DNA of 56,642 nucleotides, filler included, from Sphacelaria rigidula (Eukaryota): assembly GCA_964200075.2 (NCBI GenBank). It is 4 parts of 4 records of this genome, joined end to end, with 100 filler letters (N's around TTAATTAATTAA, not from the genome) between each part and the next. Parts side by side here need not be neighbours in the genome. Positions count along the whole stretch, not along the records: positions 1 to 14,091 come from CAXNAA020002464.1; 3 more parts are not named here. The stretch is one strand, 5' to 3'. The notes under the pieces were generated by a model, which had not been told where the DNA came from, did not search any database, and saw nothing but the letters and a program-made list of their open reading frames with translations. Below are positions 2,965-43,654 of this stretch, one piece after another (the stretch's first letter is position 1; every line of letters starts with the position of its first letter). Made by a program: the position numbers and the translations under genes.

Positions 2965-3448
2965 CGGAGGTGACTGAATTCTGGGTTCCTGGTTCGAGCG
3001 AGCGGGATGCAACGGGTATATTATTGGTTTAGTGGTACTCTGCATTGTTGCTTGACGGTGTATTTGACAGGTATGGTATTGGAAGGTGTGTGGTGCGTGT
3101 TCATTTCACAGGCCAAATAAATACGGTACTTTGTGGCCAAAAGCAGATATAGCGGTGCAATCTAAGTAATGGGACCAATCGTCCGATCACGCCTCCGCGC
3201 GAAACTTCAAAATTATTTGATGGAAAACTGCCATTTTACCCGTTACATTCGTGTGCGCCTATCTATCCACAATACATGAGACACACACCCACACACCCAC
3301 ACACCCACTTGCGCATACGCTTCACAGGCACAGCTTTGACTCGTCTTTCCTCTAGACAAGGATCAAAGCTATACATACCTCCAGTGCGCAAATAGACGTT
3401 ACTATACTCCTGCAATAACCGCACTCGATCAGTGTGACACTAACCAGG

Positions 3449-3878
3449 ATGAAGATCTCTACTCTTTTTCTGCGTGGTACTCTGCTGTTGTTTGCGGCCG
3501 CCGTCACTACGCTAGGCGCGTCTGTGTCTGTAGAGGACCTAGCAGAAATGCTTGAAGATCAGCTCGCGGAAAAGATCGACAAAAAACAGGGGCCTGCCCC
3601 TCAGCCTCCGGGTATTGTATTCGAGCAATCCGGCGGCGAAGATGCCATCACCGACAGAGGAACGCTCTCGCCGTTTCCAGCCCTCATGGCTCGTAGAGTA
3701 GTAGACACCCCTCCCATGACCGAATCTGGTGCAAGTGGCGATGGAAGGCACGTTGACGGCAAGGAGACGGCTGGACCCTTCAACGACAAGATGTCAGGCG
3801 CCGATTCCGCCGGGCTCGAGCTCGCTATCGCCGCCGCTGAGGGAGGACCTCTGCAAGAGGTCTCACAGAGCACTGAAG
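3449..3878 (+). CDS. Exon 1 of an uncharacterised signal-peptide protein (acidic, low complexity)
   Basis: ATG at 3449 gives MKISTLFLRGTLLLFAAAVTTLGA, a signal-peptide-like N-terminus; ends at donor GAAG|gtacgg (phase 1). The ORF-track extension to 4006 is probably intron read-through. Confidence 0.7.
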
Positions 3879-4630
3879 GTACGGCTCATGACGCTGCCTG
3901 CACGCGTATTATACGACTGTGTGCTACAGCGCAGCACAGTGGATATTTTGCGTTGAATGGGGGCGGTCGATTAGACGTTATATACAAATGTTGCTTGCCA
4001 AAGTGATGTGATATAGTATACGTCATGCGCGTTATTTCCTGTATCATCTATAAATTCGGAGCGTTGGCAGCATCGATCTGGTGAGTGCACACAACAAGAG
4101 CGGATATCGCTGTTCCACTGTTGAGGACTCGGCTCCATAGGGTACTAACCAGACACAGCAGTGTGATGGGTGGGATCTGGTCGCCCTTGAGAAGGCTCTT
4201 TCTCCTGCCGGCGTGGAACGGCGTGCCCACTTTGACCATTTCCACGAGAAGTGGTCCCAGCACCATTTTTACAACCCGCGTTATGGGCGGCGTCCAACAA
4301 ATGGATCTTCTTGGATGTTGGATCATTTGGCCGCCGCGACTGGCTGTACACTACTACAACCCAGTACTCACCACCCGTGTGTTTTGCTGCGGATTATGAT
4401 GAGAGCTCTGACCCCGATGTTGTCGAGAGGGAAGCCTCTCTGAATATCCCAATTGCATCACTACATTGCGGCGAGACGCTTATACAAGACTGTAATGCTT
4501 GGCTGAGTAGCAACGGCAATCCTCGAAAGTCGACATCGTATATTTCTCATTACTGATGGCGGCGGGCGCGGCAGAGGCGCCTGAGATCTTGTCCTTGCTC
4601 CCGCCTGGCATCAAGTTACTACTCTACTTG

Positions 4631-4871
4631 GCATTGCCGCCCTTTCTCATGAGCTGCATATCTGGATTCTTCTCGGCTGCACGCGTGTTCTGGGCGTCAA
4701 CGTGCATTTTAGCGGCGCTTGCTTCCACACACTCCACGAAAGAGACGAAATCGGCGTCCTTCCGTGGCCGAAGTGGACGCGAGCGCCGGTAGAATGCACG
4801 TTGACGCCCAGAACATGGCTGGAGCCGAAGAGATTAAGTCAAGATATGCTGTCCATGAGAGAAGGCGATGC
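4631..4871. repeat. Intronic fold-back hairpin H1 (candidate pre-miRNA/hpRNA)
   Basis: 4686-4708 is the exact reverse complement of 4793-4815 (23 bp); imperfect pairing extends to about 100 nt per arm. Confidence 0.85.
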
Positions 4872-4929
4872 TTCGAAGCAAGGGAGTGGCGGTAGGTCGC
4901 GGCATAGGATGCTGTCCATTTTGCTAGTA

Positions 4930-5256
4930 CTAGAAAATGTGTGCAGCAATAATATATGGTGGTGCTCATGAGGCGTTCCTGCAGTTCTGTGAAACCTCTT
5001 GAAGAGGTCCTCCCTCGACGGCGGCGAGCTCTAGTCCAGCGGAATCGGCGCCTGACATCTTGTCCTTGAAGGGCCCAGCCGTTTTCTGACTGCCAAGTCA
5101 GCAGGCGGCCGAACCCTTCAGCGACAAGATATCAAGCGCCGATTCCGCCGGACGAGAGCTCGCCGCCGTCGAGGGAGGACCTCTTCAAGAGGTCTCACAG
5201 GACACTGCAGGAACGGGTCATGAGCACCACCATATGTTGCTGCACGCATATTCTAG
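4930..5256. repeat. Intronic fold-back hairpin H2 made of an inverted copy of the exon 1 3' end
   Basis: 39-bp perfect stem 4994-5032/5155-5193, apex CTGACT-GCCA-AGTCAG; arms homologous to 3770-3910. Confidence 0.9.
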
Positions 5257-5491
5257 GATCGCGTACTATAGCGCAGCACAGCAAATAGTTGCGTTCACTG
5301 GGTACGGTCGATTGGAAGTTGTGTGTTGCTTACCAAAGTGTTGTAAAATACTGTCACGTGGTTACATGGATGTTATTTCCTCTGTCAACTGTAACTCGGA
5401 GCGTTGGCAGCACCGATCGGGAGAGTGTTGCACAAAAGGAGCGGATGCCACCGTTCCACTGTCAAGGGTCCTGCACGATCGATAGGGAGCC

Positions 5492-5701
5492 TGAAATGCG
5501 TGAGAGGACCGCGTGCTTAGAGGACTGCATCGGAATTTGAACATCCCTATGGTTAGGGTTAGGGTCAGGGTTAGTGTTAGGGTATGGTCAGGGGCGTGGT
5601 ACCTGCAAGGACTGACCCGATTGGTTTTTACAAACGTCGATCCTGCGGTGTTTTGAACTACGGTGCGGTCCTCTAAGCACGCGATCCTCTCACGCATTAC
5701 A
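5492..5701 (-). mobile_element. Second copy of the TAACCC-bearing MITE
   Basis: TSD GAGCC/GAGCC; the paralogous unit at ~7148 has an empty site with a single GAGCC. Confidence 0.9.
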
Positions 5702-6633
5702 GAGCCAACCAGACACAGCAGTGTGATCAGTGGGGTCTGATCGCCCTTGAAAATGTTCCTTCTCCTGCCGGTGTGGATCGGCAAGCGCAATTTGTCCACC
5801 TTTACGATAAGTGGTCCCCACACCATTTTTCCAACCCGCGTCATGGGCAGCATCCAACGAATGGATCTTCTTGGATCTTAGATCTTTTGGCGGCCGCGGC
5901 TGACTATATAGTATTGATACTACAATCCAGTACTTACTACTGCTTGCATGTTTAGCTGCAGATCATGATAACAAGAGCTTAGACCTCGATTTTGTCGAGG
6001 GGGAAGACTCTCTGTGCTCCAGCTACATCACTCATCAGCACATTGCGACGAGAAGTTTAAACAATACCGTAACGGTTGGCTGAGTAGCAACAGCAGTCCC
6101 CGAAAGTCGACGTCAAATATATTGTATTTGTTTTCGTCGACACCGTTTCTTCCCACACCTCAGAAAGTTCAGAGTTTTCGGGACTCTGCGCTGAGACTTC
6201 TCCGAGAATGAACCCGCTTGATATTTATCCGAAGCTTCATTTTGGGAGCAGCCGAAGAAATCTGACTGCAAGGCAGCTATTCGGAGAGCTGCGCCGTGAA
6301 TACGCCGTAACGCTCGGGAGCATTTGACAATCACCAGGTACTTTGCCAACCCCGACAATTCCCGGATCTCCGAAAAAACAGTGTCGATAATAATAACCGG
6401 CCTTGATAACAGATATAGCAGCGGGAGCTAGTCCGGCGGTATCGGCGCCTGAGATCCTGTCCTTGCCGTTGCCCAGGTGTCACTTCCGTGGCCGAAGTGG
6501 ACCCAAGCGCCCCTAGAATGCACGTTGACAACCAGAACACGGCTAAAGCCGACAGTCAAGATATGCAGTCCACAAGAGAGGACGATGATACGAAGCAGAG
6601 GAGTGATATGGTGGCAGGTGGAGGCATATACTA

Positions 6634-6926
6634 CTGTAGCACACAGCACATGAAAAGTATGTGTGTGCAGCAACGTGGTGCTATGAGCCGCACCTCGCGT
6701 GTTTGTCTGCGACGTCTCTTGAAGAGGTCTTACCCCAGCGGCGGCGATGCTAGTTCCGCGGTATCGGTGCATGAGATACGAAAGATCTCAGGCGCCGATA
6801 CCGCGGAGCTAGCACCGCCGCCGTTGGGCTAAGACCTCTTCAAGAGGTGCCACACAACACTCGAGGTGCGGCTCATGAGTACCATATTGCCGCACGCACA
6901 TATCCTAGTAGTCCCGTGTGCTGCAG
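6634..6926. repeat. Intronic fold-back hairpin H3, paralogue of H2
   Basis: Arms pair around apex TGAGAT-ACGAAAG-ATCTCA (6772-6790); homologous to 3790-3930. Confidence 0.88.
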
Positions 6927-7364
6927 CACAGCCAAGTCGATATCCTGTGTTGACTACGTACGTATGTACTGTATGGTCGACTAGATTTTTGCGTTACTTG
7001 TCAAAGCGATATAAATCACCGCACTTGCTTCCACGGCCGTTTTTCCCTCTGTCGACTATAATTCGGAGCATTGGCAGCACCAATCTGGTGAGTATCGCCA
7101 AAAAAAGCTCATGTCGCCGCTCCACCGTCAACAGCTCGGTTTCATTAGGAGCCAACTAAACACGGCAGTTTGATGGGTAAGATCTGGTTGCCCTTGAACA
7201 CGCTTATTCTCTCGCCGGTGTGGATCGGCACGCGCACGTTGTCTATCCTTACAAGTGGTTCCAGCACCACATCAACCACCCGCGTCGTGTACGGTATCCA
7301 ACAAACGGGTTTGGATCTTGGATCTTTCGGTCGCCGACTGCCTACACAGTACTTCTGTACATGT

Positions 7365-7580
7365 TGTAATGCGTGAGAGGACCGCGTGCTTAGAGGACCG
7401 CATCGGAATTTGAACACATCCCCATGGTTAGGGTAGGGTTAGGGTTAGTGTTGGGGTTACGGTCAGGGGCGTGGTACCTGCAGGGACTGGCCCGATTGGT
7501 TTTGAAAAACATCGATCCTGCGGTGTTTTGAACTACGGCGCGGTCCTCTATAATATAGCACGCGGTCCTCTCACGCATTA
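7365..7580 (-). mobile_element. Third copy of the TAACCC-bearing MITE
   Basis: Same TIRs, flanks CATGT/CATGA. Confidence 0.88.
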
Positions 7581-8073
7581 CACATGAACCACGGGTGAGC
7601 ATCTATCCGGTCTGTCTACAGTAGCATTGTACGCATGAGTGTACAACAGTACGGGAACTTCACCCCGTTGAGTGTGGGCGATGTGCTTTTTCAGCAGTGC
7701 CTGTCGGTCACATGTACGACCAAGTACCACGAGGGCGCCGGGAATGTAGATCACGGTGTCGGGTCTGCGGAGTATACTTTGTCTGATGGAAAGATCACTG
7801 CTCCACACGTATGCCCATATTTTCTGTCACGAGCTTATATGTGCGTACACACTACTTGAACATACTCCATACTGTCATTCACGACGGCATACCACTGTAC
7901 TGTATGCTGTCGCCTGCTGCGTCGCATTGTACACGGCATGATAAAGGTGACCGCGTCCTGTCCGGACGCTGGACCCGCCCCGAATCTAATGCGACTACGC
8001 GTACAGTATTTGACCTTCCACACACTCACTGTACGTCTGTCGCTCCCTTCGCCTTGCTCGTGTGCGCGAACAG

Positions 8074-9992: not shown

Positions 9993-10377
9993 GTCGTCTA
10001 CGGTACCTGTCACGTGACATATAGTGCTCAAGATTCTCACCTCAGAGTTGAGAACCTCCCTGGACTCGTCATCGGGCGTGTCGTCCTCCTGGTCGTTAGG
10101 CTCGTCGTTACGCACGGTAGGTGGGTTTTCGTCTCCACTATCGGCTGGTGAATCGGTTTTGAGTTTTTCGCCGTTGCCGAAACCTCCGGCTTCAACTTCT
10201 CGTTGTCAATCTCTTCCTAGAATTTCTTCAAGCAGCCGGTACCCTTTTTCCTGCTAGTCTCTTCTTCGCTCTCCACCTGAGATAAACAACGGCAGAGGAC
10301 GGCGGTGGGGGGGGGGGGGGGGAGGATAACAAATTTGTTGAAAAACCCCCCCCCCCCCCCCACCCACNNNNNNNNNN

Positions 10378-10417
<40 letters not shown>

Positions 10418-10763
10418 GTACTCATTTGTTGAGTACGCCCCCCCCCCCCCCACCCCGCCCCCGTATATCTCAGGTGGAGAGGGCAGAAGGGGCTAGCAGG
10501 AAAATGGGTACCCGCTGGTACAAAAAATCTTGGAATACATTGACAACGACAAGTCGAAGCCAGAGGTGTCGGCAACGACAACGAATCAAAACTGTTTCGC
10601 AGGTAGACGGTGTAGACGAAAACTCAGCCGAACGAGCGTGACGACGTAGGAGCCTAGCGACCAGGAAAACGACGCGTCGGATGACAGGCCGAGGGAGGTT
10701 CTTCACTCTGAGGTGAGAGTCTTGATCACCACTATATGTCACGTGGCACGTACCGTTGACGAC
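9993..10763. repeat. Inverted duplication of a ~300-nt degenerate exon-like unit around a poly-G/poly-C spacer
   Basis: 9993-10292 is a diverged reverse complement of 10461-10763; both copies keep ctcag|GTGGAG and CTGAG|gtgaga splice-like ends but contain stops. Confidence 0.85.
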
Positions 10764-14091: not shown

Positions 14092-14191
14092 NNNNNNNNN
14101 NNNNNNNNNNNNNNNNNNNNNNNNNNNNNNNNNNNTTAATTAATTAANNNNNNNNNNNNNNNNNNNNNNNNNNNNNNNNNNNNNNNNNNNN
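14092..14191. other. Artificial scaffold linker (44 N + TTAATTAATTAA + 44 N)
   Basis: Identical 100-nt spacer with stops in all six frames, present three times. Confidence 0.97.
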
Positions 14192-15225: not shown

Positions 15226-15817
15226 TGATGGCCTGGCTGCCATAACCACTGCTGTCGCTGGTGCTCGCGGGCAGTAAGCGTGCTGCTTCATTGTCCTTCG
15301 CTCGCCAGTATCATGGTGGTCCTTTACCCCATGAGAACAGCACAGGGCAGGGTCGATGACAAGTGCTGTACAAACACTCTGTATGTAGTTTGCACACAGT
15401 ATTTTAGCTCGCAGTTCAGGTCTGTGCATGGAGCGTGTTGCGAACAGCACTCGCTACGCAGTACAGATTGCCCACGCACCCAAGACTTGTAGAGACAGGA
15501 CCGCACTGACTGTACACATGGGACCACAGTATGAGCAGTGCTGCTGCTGTAGTGTCTACAGGGCTTGGGTGATTGGGCAATCTGTACTGTATTCGAGTGT
15601 TGTTTGCAGCACGCTGCATGCACAGACCTGAACTGAGCTACAATACTGTGCAAACTACATACAGAGTGTTCGTACAGCACTCGTCATAGACCCTACCCTG
15701 TGCTATTCTTATGGGGGTAAGGGCCACCGTGCTACTGGCGAGCGAAGGACAGTAAGTCAACACGCTGACTGCCCGCGAGCACTAGCGACAGCAGTAGTGA
15801 TGCCAGCCAAGCCATCA
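15226..15817. repeat. ~590-nt fold-back hairpin inside the hAT-like element
   Basis: Arms of about 280 nt pair throughout, e.g. ACACTCTGTATGTAGTTTGCACA with TGTGCAAACTACATACAGAGTGT. Confidence 0.92.
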
Positions 15818-28279: not shown

Positions 28280-28379
28280 NNNNNNNNNNNNNNNNNNNNN
28301 NNNNNNNNNNNNNNNNNNNNNNNTTAATTAATTAANNNNNNNNNNNNNNNNNNNNNNNNNNNNNNNNNNNNNNNNNNNN
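28280..28379. other. Artificial scaffold linker
   Basis: Same N44-TTAATTAATTAA-N44 spacer. Confidence 0.97.
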
Positions 28380-29800: not shown

Positions 29801-29912
29801 CACGGGTGGCCACTGGGGTGCCTGCAACCTCAAATTTGGACGTCACAGACATCGCACAAGGTCTGTATACCGTCCAAATTTGAGGTTACAGGCACCCCAG
29901 TGGCCACCCGTG
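29801..29912. repeat. 112-nt near-perfect hairpin (pre-miRNA-like or tiny CAC...GTG MITE)
   Basis: 42-bp stem with one mismatch, continued by an ACAGAC/GTCTGT inner stem. Confidence 0.9.
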
Positions 29913-33329: not shown

Positions 33330-33723
33330 TTGACCAATGTCATCAGCGCATGCAGCGCGAACGTAGTTTACGAAGGAATCCCATGTGTTTAAAAAGGATA
33401 ATTGGCAGCCAAATCACGAGCAGCAGGTGGCTGCCGCTCGGCTGTTGTTGTACTGTTTGAGAATGACATCAGCATTGCAGAGGCGAATGCAGTCTACGAA
33501 GGATTTGTGGTCAAGAAGGAGAACCGGAAGCCAGATCACGAGAGGCAAGTGGCTGCCGACTGGCTGCTGGTGTACTGTACCAGCAACCACTGGTACAGTG
33601 TGCATCAACAACCTGACGGCAGCAACCTGCTCCTCGTTATCTAGGCTTCCAATCCTACTTCTCAAACACGGGGAATCCTTCATAGACTGCAATCGCGTTG
33701 CATGCGCTGATGACATTGGTCAA
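33330..33723. repeat. ~125-nt unit present twice in direct and once in inverted orientation
   Basis: Units ~33330-33455, ~33461-33585 and inverted ~33592-33723; apex CTGTACCAG-CAACCA-CTGGTACAG. Confidence 0.85.
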
Positions 33724-36875: not shown

Positions 36876-39378
36876 CTGATCTGCTAAAGCGAAGCCCACT
36901 TCTCCGTTGATGAGTTGTAGGCGTTTGATCCTCCTTGCACCCGTCGGCTTGACGGAATCATTCAGCGCGGCCCGAAAAGATCGCCTCAATTGGTCCACGG
37001 AAATGAGCGGTGAACGAGGAGAAGCGGGGGCAGGCTTGTCTTGACCTGGAACGCGTCGAGTGAGGCACTCGAAACCATTCGTGTTGTCTTCTGTTTTGAA
37101 GAGCTTTAAGACGCTCTCCAGCGGCAACTTTTGTTCGGGGCAGATTGGAAAAGTCAAAACGGCGGGAAAACGATGTTTTGTTGGCTGACAAGATTCATGA
37201 TTCACTGCCATGTACGGCCAGGTGATCCATTGTTGGGTGTGAAACACCAGCGATCTTGATTACGGAAATGACCGTCAGTTGCGATACCCCAGGCCAGGCG
37301 AAGGACACGCATAGCAGCCACGGTCTCTGACCTTCGAGAGTACTGCGTGGGCATTATATTCTGAGGCACGCTGCAGCCAAAGTTCACATAATTCAGCATG
37401 TCCTTCGAAAGCCTAAGAGGCGCCTAGGTGCGAAAGAAAATGCCCGCATGTGCTTCAACATGTCCCGCAGTGAGCTTGAAGGGGTGATTTACTCTCCAAG
37501 ACGTACTGTGCAAGGAAGAGAAAATGACTTTTTACCGCAGAGTACGAACCCAACTCGAAACGGACCCCACGGTATTGGCTTCCCCTGCGCCACATGAACA
37601 CGTATATCGACGATCGAATCGACGCCCCGGCTAAAGAGCAATTAGAGGTGATACCTGTGGACTACGCGGAATGAACACGATTGGAACTTGCGGCGAAATC
37701 ACCACCCCTGTCTCGTCGTATCTGTTGGTCCTCTTGCCATGGCTTTGAAACCGTGTGGTCGCACTTGTGGTATATTGGCGTCCATGAAGTGGAAAGAACG
37801 GGTGTTCTTACGGCCTACAGTCATCACAGCGGTAGTGTAGCAACTAGAGCACCCCACGTCCCCACTCAAACGTGAGCACGTGCATTTGTAGGATCTGTAC
37901 AGTCTCTGGCACGGTTTGGCAACTTAGGCAGGTAGGCCTCTTCGTGAAAACCGGTCTCTCGACTATATCGAGGTATGCCTTAAAATGTGGTCCTAGCTGT
38001 TACATGTCTGGCATGGCGACGAGGAAACATCGAATTGCTTTCATCGACGGCACTGCACGCGAAAAAAGACCGTCGCCTCAGGCAATTCTGATTAATCCCG
38101 CGTGTAGCAGTCTTACACCAGGAAAGCTGACTTACCACGAATTTGCAGACGTTTCTTTGCGTAGATCTTCGGATGCCAACAGTCTCACGCAGGCCCACAA
38201 TGAGCGCTGCGGAGTCCTCTCCAGTCTCTTGCGCCAGCGAAGCGAAAAAGGACTCGGCTGCCTCGCGAGGCTTCCGCGCAGCGTCTGACGTCGTTCGAAG
38301 CAGTATCACCTTTGCGAGAATGGGTTCGACAGCAGCCCGCCTCTCACGATTGTCGGCACGCGATTGCCGCAATCTTTCCGCTCTTTCCCCTGTACGACGC
38401 CCCCTGCGGCTATTTGGAAGCCTGACTGACTCCTCTAGAGGTGAGACGTTGCCTATAGATTCCTCACTCTCCGAAGTTTCCCCGTCATCTACAGATTCCA
38501 CTTCTTTCGCCGGCGTGCCGTTCTTGGTAGAAGCGTAGGTCTCCGTCGATGAACCATTCGCCTCAGACCTGCTGGCCTCCTCGACCGTGCCCAAATTCTC
38601 TGGTAGACTCTCTTGCCTCGATGCGCCCACCATGAAGGCAGGATTCTGATAGGCGTGGTATCGCGTTGCAGGGTCAAACAAGGAAATCGCTCCGCATGAA
38701 CTATTTTATGTAGAAACAAATGACGTGAATGCGCTCGAAAAAAACAAAATACCTGTCACACATGACTGTTGTTGTCGTTGTTGTCGTTGTTGTTGTCTTC
38801 ACATTAACAATCGTTCCGATATCTGCGCAGTACTCTGTAGTGGGTATCTGATCGGACGCCTTCCGTCATCACAGGCTAACTACCCCAAGCTAGGGTGTAA
38901 GAAAATTTAAAAACAAATCTGCCAGGAAAGGGTCAGGGCTGAGGTTAGGGTTAGGATTAGGGTTATGCACTCACAAATATCCCTCAACTACCCACGCAAA
39001 AAAAAATGTAGACTCACTGTGGTACGCAAGCGGAACGCGACCCGCGACCCGTGCTTGACAAACAGCAGGGACCTGTCATTGTCGAATCGTTGTGATTTCC
39101 TGGCCAGGGTCCCGAAACAGCCTTGAAATGAAATCGCGTCTTGGCCCCCCTTTTCCTTGTGCCTCCCGTTCAAGTAGCGCGAAATGCAATCAAAACCAAT
39201 TGGGTTGTCCTCGGTTTTGCAGAGCTTTGCCAGGGCTGGGCGCGGCATCTAGGACAAGGAGAAGTACAGTGAGGCGTTTGGGTGGGTGGGTTGGGGTGGG
39301 ATGTACTCATGATCACGGATACTATAGTCACAAGACCATTGATCTCGCATCCCTTCAAAGCCGGGACGGAGCACGCCG

Positions 39379-39603: not shown

Positions 39604-41438
39604 GGGCAGCATGTTGGCTGCGTAAACTGAAGGTAGACAGAGAATGCGGCCGATCAAGAGGTGATAAAGGTGACATACAACAGTCTCTGGTCCAACCTTG
39701 TCAAAATCCACAACCTTCACATTGAAACAAACGACAATACAAGAAAGCAGCGTCGATTACGTATGCGTCAGTGAACCTTCATATTTCCACGTTGTATCTG
39801 ACTCTCTCTCACCGTCTATGACGACAACAAAAAACACGTCCATTCACTCACCACCTGTCAAACATGACCAGTGAACCCACGGCCCACTAGCACGGTCAAC
39901 AACTCAGTCTCATTTCACTCACCACCAGTCGGTGGGGCTCGGTAGGGTTGCTTGAAGATTCGTCTTCCACTACAATTTGAGCACCGTCTAGTACCATCTC
40001 GGGATCCTCTCCAGCCGCCCGCGCGATGTCAGTGAAAAAGCGCACGGCCTTGAGCCGTGGCGCTAGCGCCGCTTGCGACGTGGTCCGCAGCATGATCGCG
40101 TTCACGACCAAGTTTTCCGCAGCCTGCCACTGGAACAGACTGTGACTCAACACACCCTCTCCCTGTTCAGGGACGTCATCTAGAGTTTCGTCAGTGTCTG
40201 CACAAGCGTCTCCATTCACATTGCCGTTGTTAGGAGGTTGACCTTTCAGCTGTGTCGTCGCCTGCAATGTCGATACATTACCCGCTGCCGTAGAAGGTGG
40301 CACGACCCGTTTCTTCTTGGGCTGTACTACCACGACCCGTTTCTTCGTCGGCAGATGCACTGTGACCCGTCTCTCTTCAGATTGTTTTGCAACTTGTCTG
40401 TTTGCAGGTAATTGCGTCCCAGCGGACCAGCGTGGTTCGCCCGTTGCTACCGCCTGCGGTCCCACGAAAAGCTGATGGGTGGGGAAGATGACCTGCGGCG
40501 CTGCGGGCCTGGTGGGCTCAAGTGGCGCTGCCTGCACCGGAGTCGACTGAGCCGGCGGTACGGCCTGCGCTGGTCCGGACACTGGCGCCAGCTGCCCAGG
40601 TGATGAGGCCACCGCCGTTGGCATTGGCAAAGCACCCTGCAGAATAGGAGGCGGTCCTTGATGTTGCACCTGCACCGTCGGTAAAAACTCCGCTTCCTCC
40701 GAGGCCGAGGCAGGCTGGCTACTGGAGGATTGCCGGTGCCCGATGAACGCCACGTCCGGGCAGGAAATTGCTGCCGTTGTCCAAAATGAGCCTTGCTGCG
40801 GTGTTGTTTGAGGTGGCGCGCTGGGGGCTGCAACAGGCGTGCTCTGTGCCGGCGTGCCCTGTTCAGGCGTGCTTTGTACAGGCGTACCTTGTGCCGGTGT
40901 ACGCTGCGTGGGTGTACCCTGCACGGGGGACGCGGTAGAAGCTCCCGGAGGGTCGTGCTGTCGCTCACTAAAAACAGCGAAAAACGTGGGACCCTGAGCA
41001 AGGGGAACAAGAGGAGCGACGGGAGGGTCAAGATAAGGTGCAAGAGTCTATCATCGTGTGTCGTTTTGAAAACCTTGGAAGAGGTTCAGACTTTTCGCGC
41101 GCACCGGCTTCGAGAAGATAGCACGTCATCATTTCGGAAAGAGAACATGCCGACTTCGTGGCATGCAGGATAGCAACAACCTACGTTAGAAAAGAAGGGC
41201 GATACATTTCCATCCGCACCCTATCATTCATTCAGCTACTCGTCACTTACTACCCCTTGACCTTGACCTTCACGTTTGATGTCGCAATCGTAACGATAGC
41301 CCCATTCGGAGCATCTCACCTTACACTAACATGTCCTCACCTTTTGGCTTTCACCGCCGCTAGCGCACTCGAAGACGTCGTTCATGACTTCATCGGGATC
41401 CACCTCGCACTTTGCGCCATCGACCTCCATTTGCAGTT
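36876..41438 (-). CDS. Spliced uncharacterised protein with QxTP repeats and a twice-repeated globular domain (partial model)
   Basis: Exons 41341-41438, 39923-40993, 39018-39248, 38136-38645 and 36876-37127 have GT-AG ends and join in phase 0; motifs LRTTSxAAxxPR..FF..A...GED and KLxKTEDNxxGFxC each occur twice. Confidence 0.7.
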
Positions 41439-42462: not shown

Positions 42463-42562
42463 NNNNNNNNNNNNNNNNNNNNNNNNNNNNNNNNNNNNNN
42501 NNNNNNTTAATTAATTAANNNNNNNNNNNNNNNNNNNNNNNNNNNNNNNNNNNNNNNNNNNN
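42463..42562. other. Artificial scaffold linker
   Basis: Same N44-TTAATTAATTAA-N44 spacer. Confidence 0.97.
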
Positions 42563-43473: not shown

Positions 43474-43654
43474 GCCATGTCTTATCAAATTGTTTTCGAC
43501 TCGAAAACGTACGGTGGAATCGCATTTTCTCGTGCCTGATACGTCTACGGCATCCATATGTAATCCATATGTGAACAGCGTGGACGAATCAGAAACGAGC
43601 GAATTCGATTCCATCGTACGTTTTCGAGTCGAAAACAATTTGATAAGACACGGC
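43474..43654. mobile_element. 181-bp palindromic MITE/hairpin
   Basis: Outer 49 nt of the arms match with 2 mismatches (GCC.TGTCTTATCAAATTGTTTTCGACTCGAAAACGTACG); pairing continues to about 80 nt. Confidence 0.85.

Follow-up and report, generated by a model that had tools for sequence, protein, structure and literature searches.

Similarity between hairpin arms beside a putative orphan gene of Sphacelaria rigidula: probable occasional arm-to-arm copying followed by ordinary decay

The window analyzed here is a stretch of 56 642 nucleotides (nt) of DNA from Sphacelaria rigidula (assembly GCA_964200075.2). In the first of its four parts, an open reading frame (ORF) overlaps the start of a block of three tandem units, and the junctions between these units form two hairpins, H2 and H3. 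Each hairpin has a left arm that is an antisense copy (H2L, H3L) and a right arm that is a sense copy (H2R, H3R) of the same gene segment. An earlier sequence-only reading of the locus, in which the ORF (3449-3889, plus strand) was called exon 1, had taken the resemblance between the two arms of each hairpin to mean that pairing is maintained by selection or by an active homogenizing mechanism. We find that the arms were probably made alike by occasional arm-to-arm copying and have since decayed in the ordinary way, with no sign of selection on the structure. The four parts of the window are ~14.08-14.09 kb each and are joined by linkers (14092-14191, 28280-28379 and 42463-42562) composed of 44 N, TTAATTAATTAA and 44 N, so the window is not one continuous piece of chromosome. 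It is eukaryote-like DNA and poor in ORFs, with 11 stop-to-stop frames of at least 180 amino acids (aa). Pfam gave no family at or above the cut-off among the 80 ORFs of the window that were scanned, and an Rfam scan of the window DNA gave no matches.

The reading frame of the ORF stays open until 4003, with a GT at 3879-3880 as a possible splice donor. Its relatives indicate that it is probably a real orphan gene. Apart from a same-species variant that is 99% identical (P0001), public read assemblies contain a frameshift-free relative with 68% identity over 147 aa (P0002) and another with 56-64% identity in the C-terminal part (P0003), both related to its first 147 codons. A representative protein search with the ORF returned only P0001, P0003 and an unrelated low-complexity protein (P0004). 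Protein searches found no longer relatives of the ORF, and no shorter ones with its residues 98-147 as query. A scan of metagenome contigs with protein alignment yielded 596 pattern matches and no relatives, and the best score for the product in a protein atlas (0.76) was below the usable level. TACTAAC-CAG at 4143-4152 was considered as an intron end and rejected, since no nearby AG joins the ORF in phase to the downstream open frame; a second exon is not claimed. The 6-nt TATCGC at 3826-3831, equal to two codons, is an insertion private to the ORF copy. None of the four hairpin arms has it, the gap at this position being 7 nt in the H3 arms, and both P0002 and P0003 are without the two corresponding residues.

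At the head of every tandem unit (Table 1) stand the final ~130 nt of the ORF and ~70 nt of its 3' flank in sense orientation, and units 1 and 2 close with an antisense copy of the same stretch, so that each unit junction is a hairpin. H2 is the junction of units 1 and 2, and H3 that of units 2 and 3; the source stretch of the arms, R1, is itself the start of unit 1. Direct blastn matches back this block (3762-4121 with 5100-5462, 4147-4543 with 5707-6120, 3783-4355 with 6778-7353, and 4759-5058 with 6483-6777) and bear out the earlier placement of H2 and H3 at equivalent positions of a larger duplicated block. The turn-round of H3 lies ~29 nt deeper in the gene segment than that of H2. The donor-like GT has been lost from the H2 right arm (GGAACGG), and the H3 right arm carries a frameshift and a stop codon when translated against the ORF. 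Unit 1 also includes H1, a hairpin that stems from this gene segment too but is older and further decayed, with 115 Watson-Crick pairs, 48 mismatches and 60 gap columns, of which only the right arm (6479-6621) survives in unit 2. The antisense remnant in unit 2 has GATACC and CTAGC in common with the H3 arms and CAAGGAC in common with H2L. The mid-copy repeat of unit 2 has a contig depth of 200-2200 versus ~50-68 in neighboring bins, with many variant joints in read contigs.

Table 1. Features of the tandem block and palindromes of the window, with positions counted along the whole window
Feature	Position	Strand	Basis or remark
ORF (exon 1), signal-peptide-like start	3449-3889	+	ORF list; no known family by Pfam
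R1, source stretch of all hairpin arms (ORF part and 3' flank)	3757-3950	+	Alignment of exon 1 with the four arms; blastn
Tandem unit 1	3762-5095		Repeats, blastn
Antisense remnant of R segment, unit 1	4550-4597	-	Matches 3781-3826; repeats, alignment
H1, same gene segment, unit 1	4601-4867		Self-match 4638-4867, 73%
Left flank of H2L	4759-4904	+	Homologous to 6483-6629 (left flank of H3L)
H2 left arm, antisense copy	4930-5091	-	Weaker homology out to ~4905
H2 loop	5092-5095		Repeats, folding
Tandem unit 2	5096-6781		Repeats, blastn
H2 right arm, sense copy, start of unit 2	5096-5256	+	Repeats, alignment
Miniature inverted-repeat transposable element (MITE)-like element inserted in unit 2	5491-5702		Very high copy
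Mid-copy repeat, unit 2 only	~6060-6458		Depth; without counterpart in unit 1
Antisense remnant of R segment, unit 2	6418-6465	-	Repeats, alignment
H3 left arm, antisense copy	6630-6777	-	Repeats, alignment, folding
H3 loop	~6778-6784		Repeats, alignment, folding
Tandem unit 3	6782-7353		Repeats, blastn
H3 right arm, sense copy, start of unit 3	6785-6935	+	Alignment, blastn
Palindrome	9993-10763		74% arm identity
Palindrome	15226-15817		79-86% arm identity (range of this and the next three)
Palindrome	29801-29912		
Palindrome	33330-33723		
Palindrome	43474-43654		

Both hairpins form long stems. H2 (4930-5256) has 141 Watson-Crick pairs, 19 mismatches and 7 gap columns and folds at -285.6 kcal/mol (z -25.5), while H3 (6630-6935) has 118 Watson-Crick pairs, 29 mismatches and 11 gap columns and folds at -220.4 kcal/mol (z -19.5); for each, none of 100 shuffles folded as well. 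Read support was assessed with contigs from public sequencing runs. The locus was found in five runs listed, from two studies, and four runs were compared with it. None of the runs listed for 3400-7360 is recorded as RNA, and three runs presumed to be RNA contained almost none of its sequence words. Two of them, X1 and X4, come from different studies; X1 may be the source data of the window assembly, and X4 serves as an independent witness. X1 contigs match the window with no differences over 5003-5184, across the H2 loop, and over 6366-7360, which includes all of H3. X4 contigs cross the H2 loop at 5008-5179 and contain both H3 arms, with 6747-6793 unbridged. It is therefore scarcely credible that the hairpins are an assembly artefact or a multi-copy fold-back transposon, even though the draft assembly has N gaps within another palindrome (10368-10377) and MITEs lie close by. 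The H2 loop is bridged by read contigs of both studies and all of H3 is spanned by one, and the arms are 9-19% diverged, unlike the product of a chimeric read. Depth in X1 is ~50-63 over both hairpins, equal to that of unique flanks, so H2 and H3 are single-copy; no further copy of either was found in the window, and the multiple dispersed copies that mark a MITE or fold-back transposon are thus missing.

The four arms group by hairpin. In their well-aligned core, 14 of 16 informative sites unite the arms of the same hairpin, with one site grouping by side and one crosswise (binomial p 1.2e-5 against 1/3). Core identity is 0.913 between the H2 arms and 0.810 between the H3 arms, versus 0.744-0.758 between hairpins; exon 1 is 0.82-0.83 identical to the H2 arms and 0.69-0.72 to the H3 arms. 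RNAalifold on H2 and H3 gave 83 consensus pairs, 11 of which have changed on both sides with the pair kept. In the maximum-likelihood tree of the four arms and exon 1, the H3 arms form a clade (98/97) and the H2 arms join weakly against exon 1 (63/53). Exon 1, H2L and H2R are close to a star, with 22, 16 and 18 private-type sites. The approximately unbiased (AU) test rejects the grouping of left arms with left arms (p 0.026), as well as the cross grouping (p 0.005). The claim that arms are more alike within than between hairpins is therefore confirmed, with a weaker separation of H2 from exon 1.

The individual motifs on which that claim had first been based are only partly informative. GTCGAGGGAGGACCTCTTCAAG is found in both H2 arms (5168 on the plus strand; 4998 as reverse complement), and so is GATTCCGC (5141; 5039 as reverse complement), which is also in exon 1 (3803). 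CTTCAAG is common to all four arms. Since GATTCCGC, CTTCAAG and the absence of TATCGC reflect either ancestral states or changes that occurred in exon 1 alone, three of the four H2 markers do not bear on the grouping, correct as they are. Both H3 arms carry GATACCGCGG (6797; 6756 as reverse complement) and TAAGACCTCTTCAAG (6830; 6718 as reverse complement), as had been described. GCTAGCA, assigned earlier to both H3 arms, is exact in the right arm only, and it is the 6-mer CTAGCA that both arms possess (6809; 6748 as reverse complement).

H2L and H3L appear to be positional homologues, because both directly follow homologous left flanks. The blastn match of 4759-5058 with 6483-6777 is one continuous direct match that runs from left flank into left arm, and the ~140 nt of the flanks themselves (4759-4904 and 6483-6629) are 83.5% identical, with a Kimura two-parameter (K2P) distance, the measure used for arms and paralogous flanks, of 0.19. 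The left arms are 74.5% identical (K2P 0.31), a distance typical of unit 3 against the other units (0.30-0.40 for its flanks) and of the pair of right arms (0.28). Left arms that would have been identical when units 1 and 2 separated now each resemble their own right arm, and this supports the view that, following the block duplication, one left arm or both were overwritten with the sequence of the right arm of the same hairpin. The argument comes from the tree plus colinearity, not from an excess of arm distance alone.

Such copying likely acted in tracts and not over whole arms. H2 mismatches are concentrated beside the loop (8/30, compared to 5/75 in the middle and 6/57 in the outer part; inner versus middle, Fisher p 0.009), and those of H3 in the outer part (18/51 versus 11/100 in the inner; p 0.0008), with partitions drawn post hoc in both cases. 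One site in inner H2 follows orientation, with G in three antisense copies (H2L and the remnants at 4550-4597 and 6418-6465) and C in three sense copies. Together with the poor match of inner H2, this site suggests an older antisense origin for H2L, with only partial conversion since, and it argues against a fresh independent fold-back.

Maintenance of the pairing by selection or continuing homogenization is not supported. The K2P distance between arms is 0.17 for H2 and 0.25 for H3, versus 0.19-0.26 between the flanks of units 1 and 2. Palindromes under ongoing conversion are expected to group by palindrome, as seen here (14:1:1, with the H2 clade at 63/53 only), and to have arm identity far above that of the flanks (typically >99%); whole-arm identity is 0.85 in H2 and 0.79 in H3. 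Among transition-type mismatches on the plus strand, the ratio of G:U to A:C is 6:7 in H2, 8:7 in H3 and 13:9 in H1. Pooled over H2 and H3 it is 14:14, without the wobble excess expected of a selected RNA stem on either strand. Within H2, the differences listed between X4, a second strain, and the window are four single nucleotide polymorphisms (SNPs; 5105, 5125, 5194 and 5217) and a 3-nt indel (4948), and their partner positions are all unchanged. The SNPs were polarized with exon 1 and the other arm, the indel not being polarizable. Those at 5105 and 5217 are pair-weakening changes in the lineage of the window, that at 5125 is a pair-breaking change in X4, and that at 5194 falls on an already mismatched pair; three of the four thus weaken a pair, one lies on a mismatch and none restores pairing. 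Flank-like divergence, lack of wobble bias and uncompensated SNPs together indicate that pairing is not being maintained. As to the mechanism proposed in the sequence-only reading, copying from arm to arm is upheld by these data, while selection or active homogenization is not. Repeat-induced point mutation was rejected as a source of the divergence, given a unit GC content of ~0.52 and transitions that do not dominate (transition to transversion ratio ~1-1.8).

Complementarity to the ORF differs widely between arms. The fraction of 21-mers within two mismatches of the ORF is 0/131 in H3L, 0/141 in H3R, 2/191 in the left arm of H1 and 0/134 in its right arm. For H2L it is 47/169, with six perfect, and in antisense this arm has a 26-nt exact match to the ORF.

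Several points weigh against occasional copying followed by unselected decay. The excess of left-arm over flank divergence is not significant by itself (35/137 versus 23/139 mismatches, p 0.08), and the case for overwriting depends on positional homology between left arms that agree at only ~75% of positions and have outer ends uncertain by ~20 nt. The H2 arms are weakly sister with respect to exon 1 (63/53), with two polarized H2-specific sites. Up to three more X4 differences exist in 3400-7360 beyond those listed, and these could lie in H2. Moreover, the best-paired parts of both hairpins (4987-5061 in H2 and 6681-6780 in H3) are exon-derived, which selection for matching the mRNA would predict as well. 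One alternative is that H2 and H3 each arose by their own fold-back duplication of the neighboring right arm at different times, with arms alike because they are young and with neither conversion nor maintenance. We regard this as possible, if unlikely. The turn-rounds ~29 nt apart (gene coordinates ~3760 for H2 and ~3789 for H3), the different arm ages (K2P 0.17 versus 0.25), the near-star of exon 1, H2L and H2R (22, 16 and 18 sites) and the frequency of inverted duplications (8 in 56 kb) would all fit two separate births. These would not, however, readily explain why both left arms follow homologous flanks (83.5%) in one continuous alignment with outer ends within ~20 nt of each other, or why H2, in the part next to its loop, has reached the divergence of paralogues (8/30). 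In addition, inner H2L keeps the orientation-specific state of two older antisense remnants, which a fresh copy of H2R would not.

The same array might instead be a functional hairpin RNA (hpRNA) locus, whose transcript would form stems that are diced to small interfering RNAs (siRNAs) against the parent gene or its paralogues, with pairing under selection and conversion as the means. The long inverted repeats with extended, stable stems (-285.6 and -220.4 kcal/mol) are of the kind expected, and the arms originate in the transcribed strand of the gene next to them and lie just downstream of it on the same strand. The exon-derived stretch is the best paired in both hairpins, H2L has its 26-nt antisense match and 6/169 perfect 21-mers, and Drosophila is known to have hpRNA loci that arose from the genes they target, as outlined in PMC10317233. 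Yet the balance of wobble and non-wobble mismatches (14:14, no bias on either strand), arm divergence equal to that of neutral paralogous flanks and the uncompensated strain polymorphisms in H2 all count against selected pairing. H3 has no 21-mer within two mismatches of the ORF (0/131 and 0/141), H1 has almost none, and the loop-proximal, exon-derived part of H2 is badly paired (8/30 mismatches). We therefore consider an hpRNA function distinctly doubtful. A further form of this idea, in our judgment quite improbable, is a self-renewing hpRNA cluster, in which the 3' end of exon 1 would give rise to one inverted copy after another (H1, then H3, then H2), each refreshed by arm copying. If it were true, siRNAs would tune the gene or paralogues of the P0002 and P0003 kind, with older hairpins retiring as complementarity drifts, and hpRNA genes would undergo birth and death at this locus in a little-studied eukaryote.

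The reading we favor remains occasional arm-to-arm copying with subsequent decay, at a locus made up of a putative orphan gene for a secreted protein and, behind it, three tandem partial copies of this gene. For the mechanism, direction and timing of the copying we infer the following sequence of events. An old partial tandem copy may have formed first (unit 3), and an inverted copy beside it would have given the ancestor of H3. The H2 junction would have been created when the block was then duplicated, from its right arm through to its left arm. A tract of conversion or template switching could have brought H2L into line with H2R in its middle and outer parts, and H3 possibly underwent a similar event. 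H3 may have lost ~60 nt at its center or have been born with another turn-round point, and both hairpins would have decayed since by ordinary uncompensated mutation. The copying likely took place by intrachromosomal gene conversion or by a replication template switch within the quasi-palindrome. In either case, this is a known, ordinary mechanism at a new locus.

The locus can be compared with three kinds of known system. An early quasi-palindrome model of template-switch mutation is reportedly due to Ripley, and the plant model in which young MIRNA genes are born by inverted duplication of their target gene is said to come from Allen et al. in 2004. The Sphacelaria hairpins are similar to template-switch products in that an arm appears to have been copied in reverse complement from the other, with compensatory-looking changes at several sites without RNA selection, and in having short arms (tens to ~150 nt) and a tiny loop. 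They differ in that the tracts suggested at this locus (~75-100 nt) are long for that class, and in that H2 and H3 are duplicates of a gene fragment, not RNA genes. According to Monttinen and Loytynoja (2022, PMC8794818), template switching can create stems, and a single event can bring about multi-base "compensatory" changes.

According to the accounts in 10.1101/800185, PMC8600007 and PMC8981503, arm-to-arm conversion is the accepted cause of palindrome-wise grouping in large sex-chromosome palindromes, where intrachromosomal conversion keeps the arms of one palindrome closer to each other than to paralogous palindromes. The likeness to H2 and H3 lies in this grouping. The arms described there exceed 10 kb, are >99% identical and are continuously converted, in contrast to the arms of ~150-165 nt here, which are 79-91% identical, have loops of 4-7 nt and show no sign of recent conversion. 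Inverted part-gene copies near a gene that form a long stem are likewise a feature of hpRNA loci, as outlined in PMC10317233, and of young MIRNA loci. In contrast to such loci, near-perfect complementarity to the gene has been lost from two of the three hairpins, H1 and H3, and the signature of selected pairing is absent at this locus.

Read as occasional copying and decay, the locus would be a clean natural case in which compensatory-looking changes in a stem come from templated DNA copying and not from RNA selection. Internal controls are provided by the flanks of the paralogous units, by the older and decayed H1 and by a second strain, and the case urges caution where structures are called from covariation. 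Should small RNAs be detected, the locus would exemplify the birth of hairpin-RNA genes from their target in a lineage for which none is described, a view that so far has no support here.

With H1, H2 and H3 included, the window contains eight local palindromes with 73-86% arm identity in 56 kb (Table 1), as expected of a general birth-and-decay process. This genome thus seems to undergo inverted duplication often, and the resulting copies range over every stage of decay. The 771-nt palindrome at 9993-10763 has a poly-G/poly-C center with an assembly gap (10368-10377). Both of its arms end outward in an acidic ORF piece and then GTGAG, with the open frame kept in the left arm only. The appearance is that of an exon-intron junction duplicated in inverted, head-to-head orientation. 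The remaining four, from 15226-15817 to 43474-43654, are each unique within the window.

The MITE-like element of unit 2 is ~210 nt long and has two other copies at 2754-2964 and 7365-7582, with 47-nt terminal inverted repeats, a degenerate TTAGGG-like core and splice-site-like ends (GTAATG...CATTACAG). Its summed contig depth in X1 is ~1.5 million, compared to ~60 for unique flanks, which suggests tens of thousands of copies. Elsewhere in the window, two long open frames on the minus strand (37980-38705 and 39896-41047), with no Pfam family, have a common C-terminal stretch (…LRTTS…FF…GED…), which suggests that they are paralogous orphan genes.

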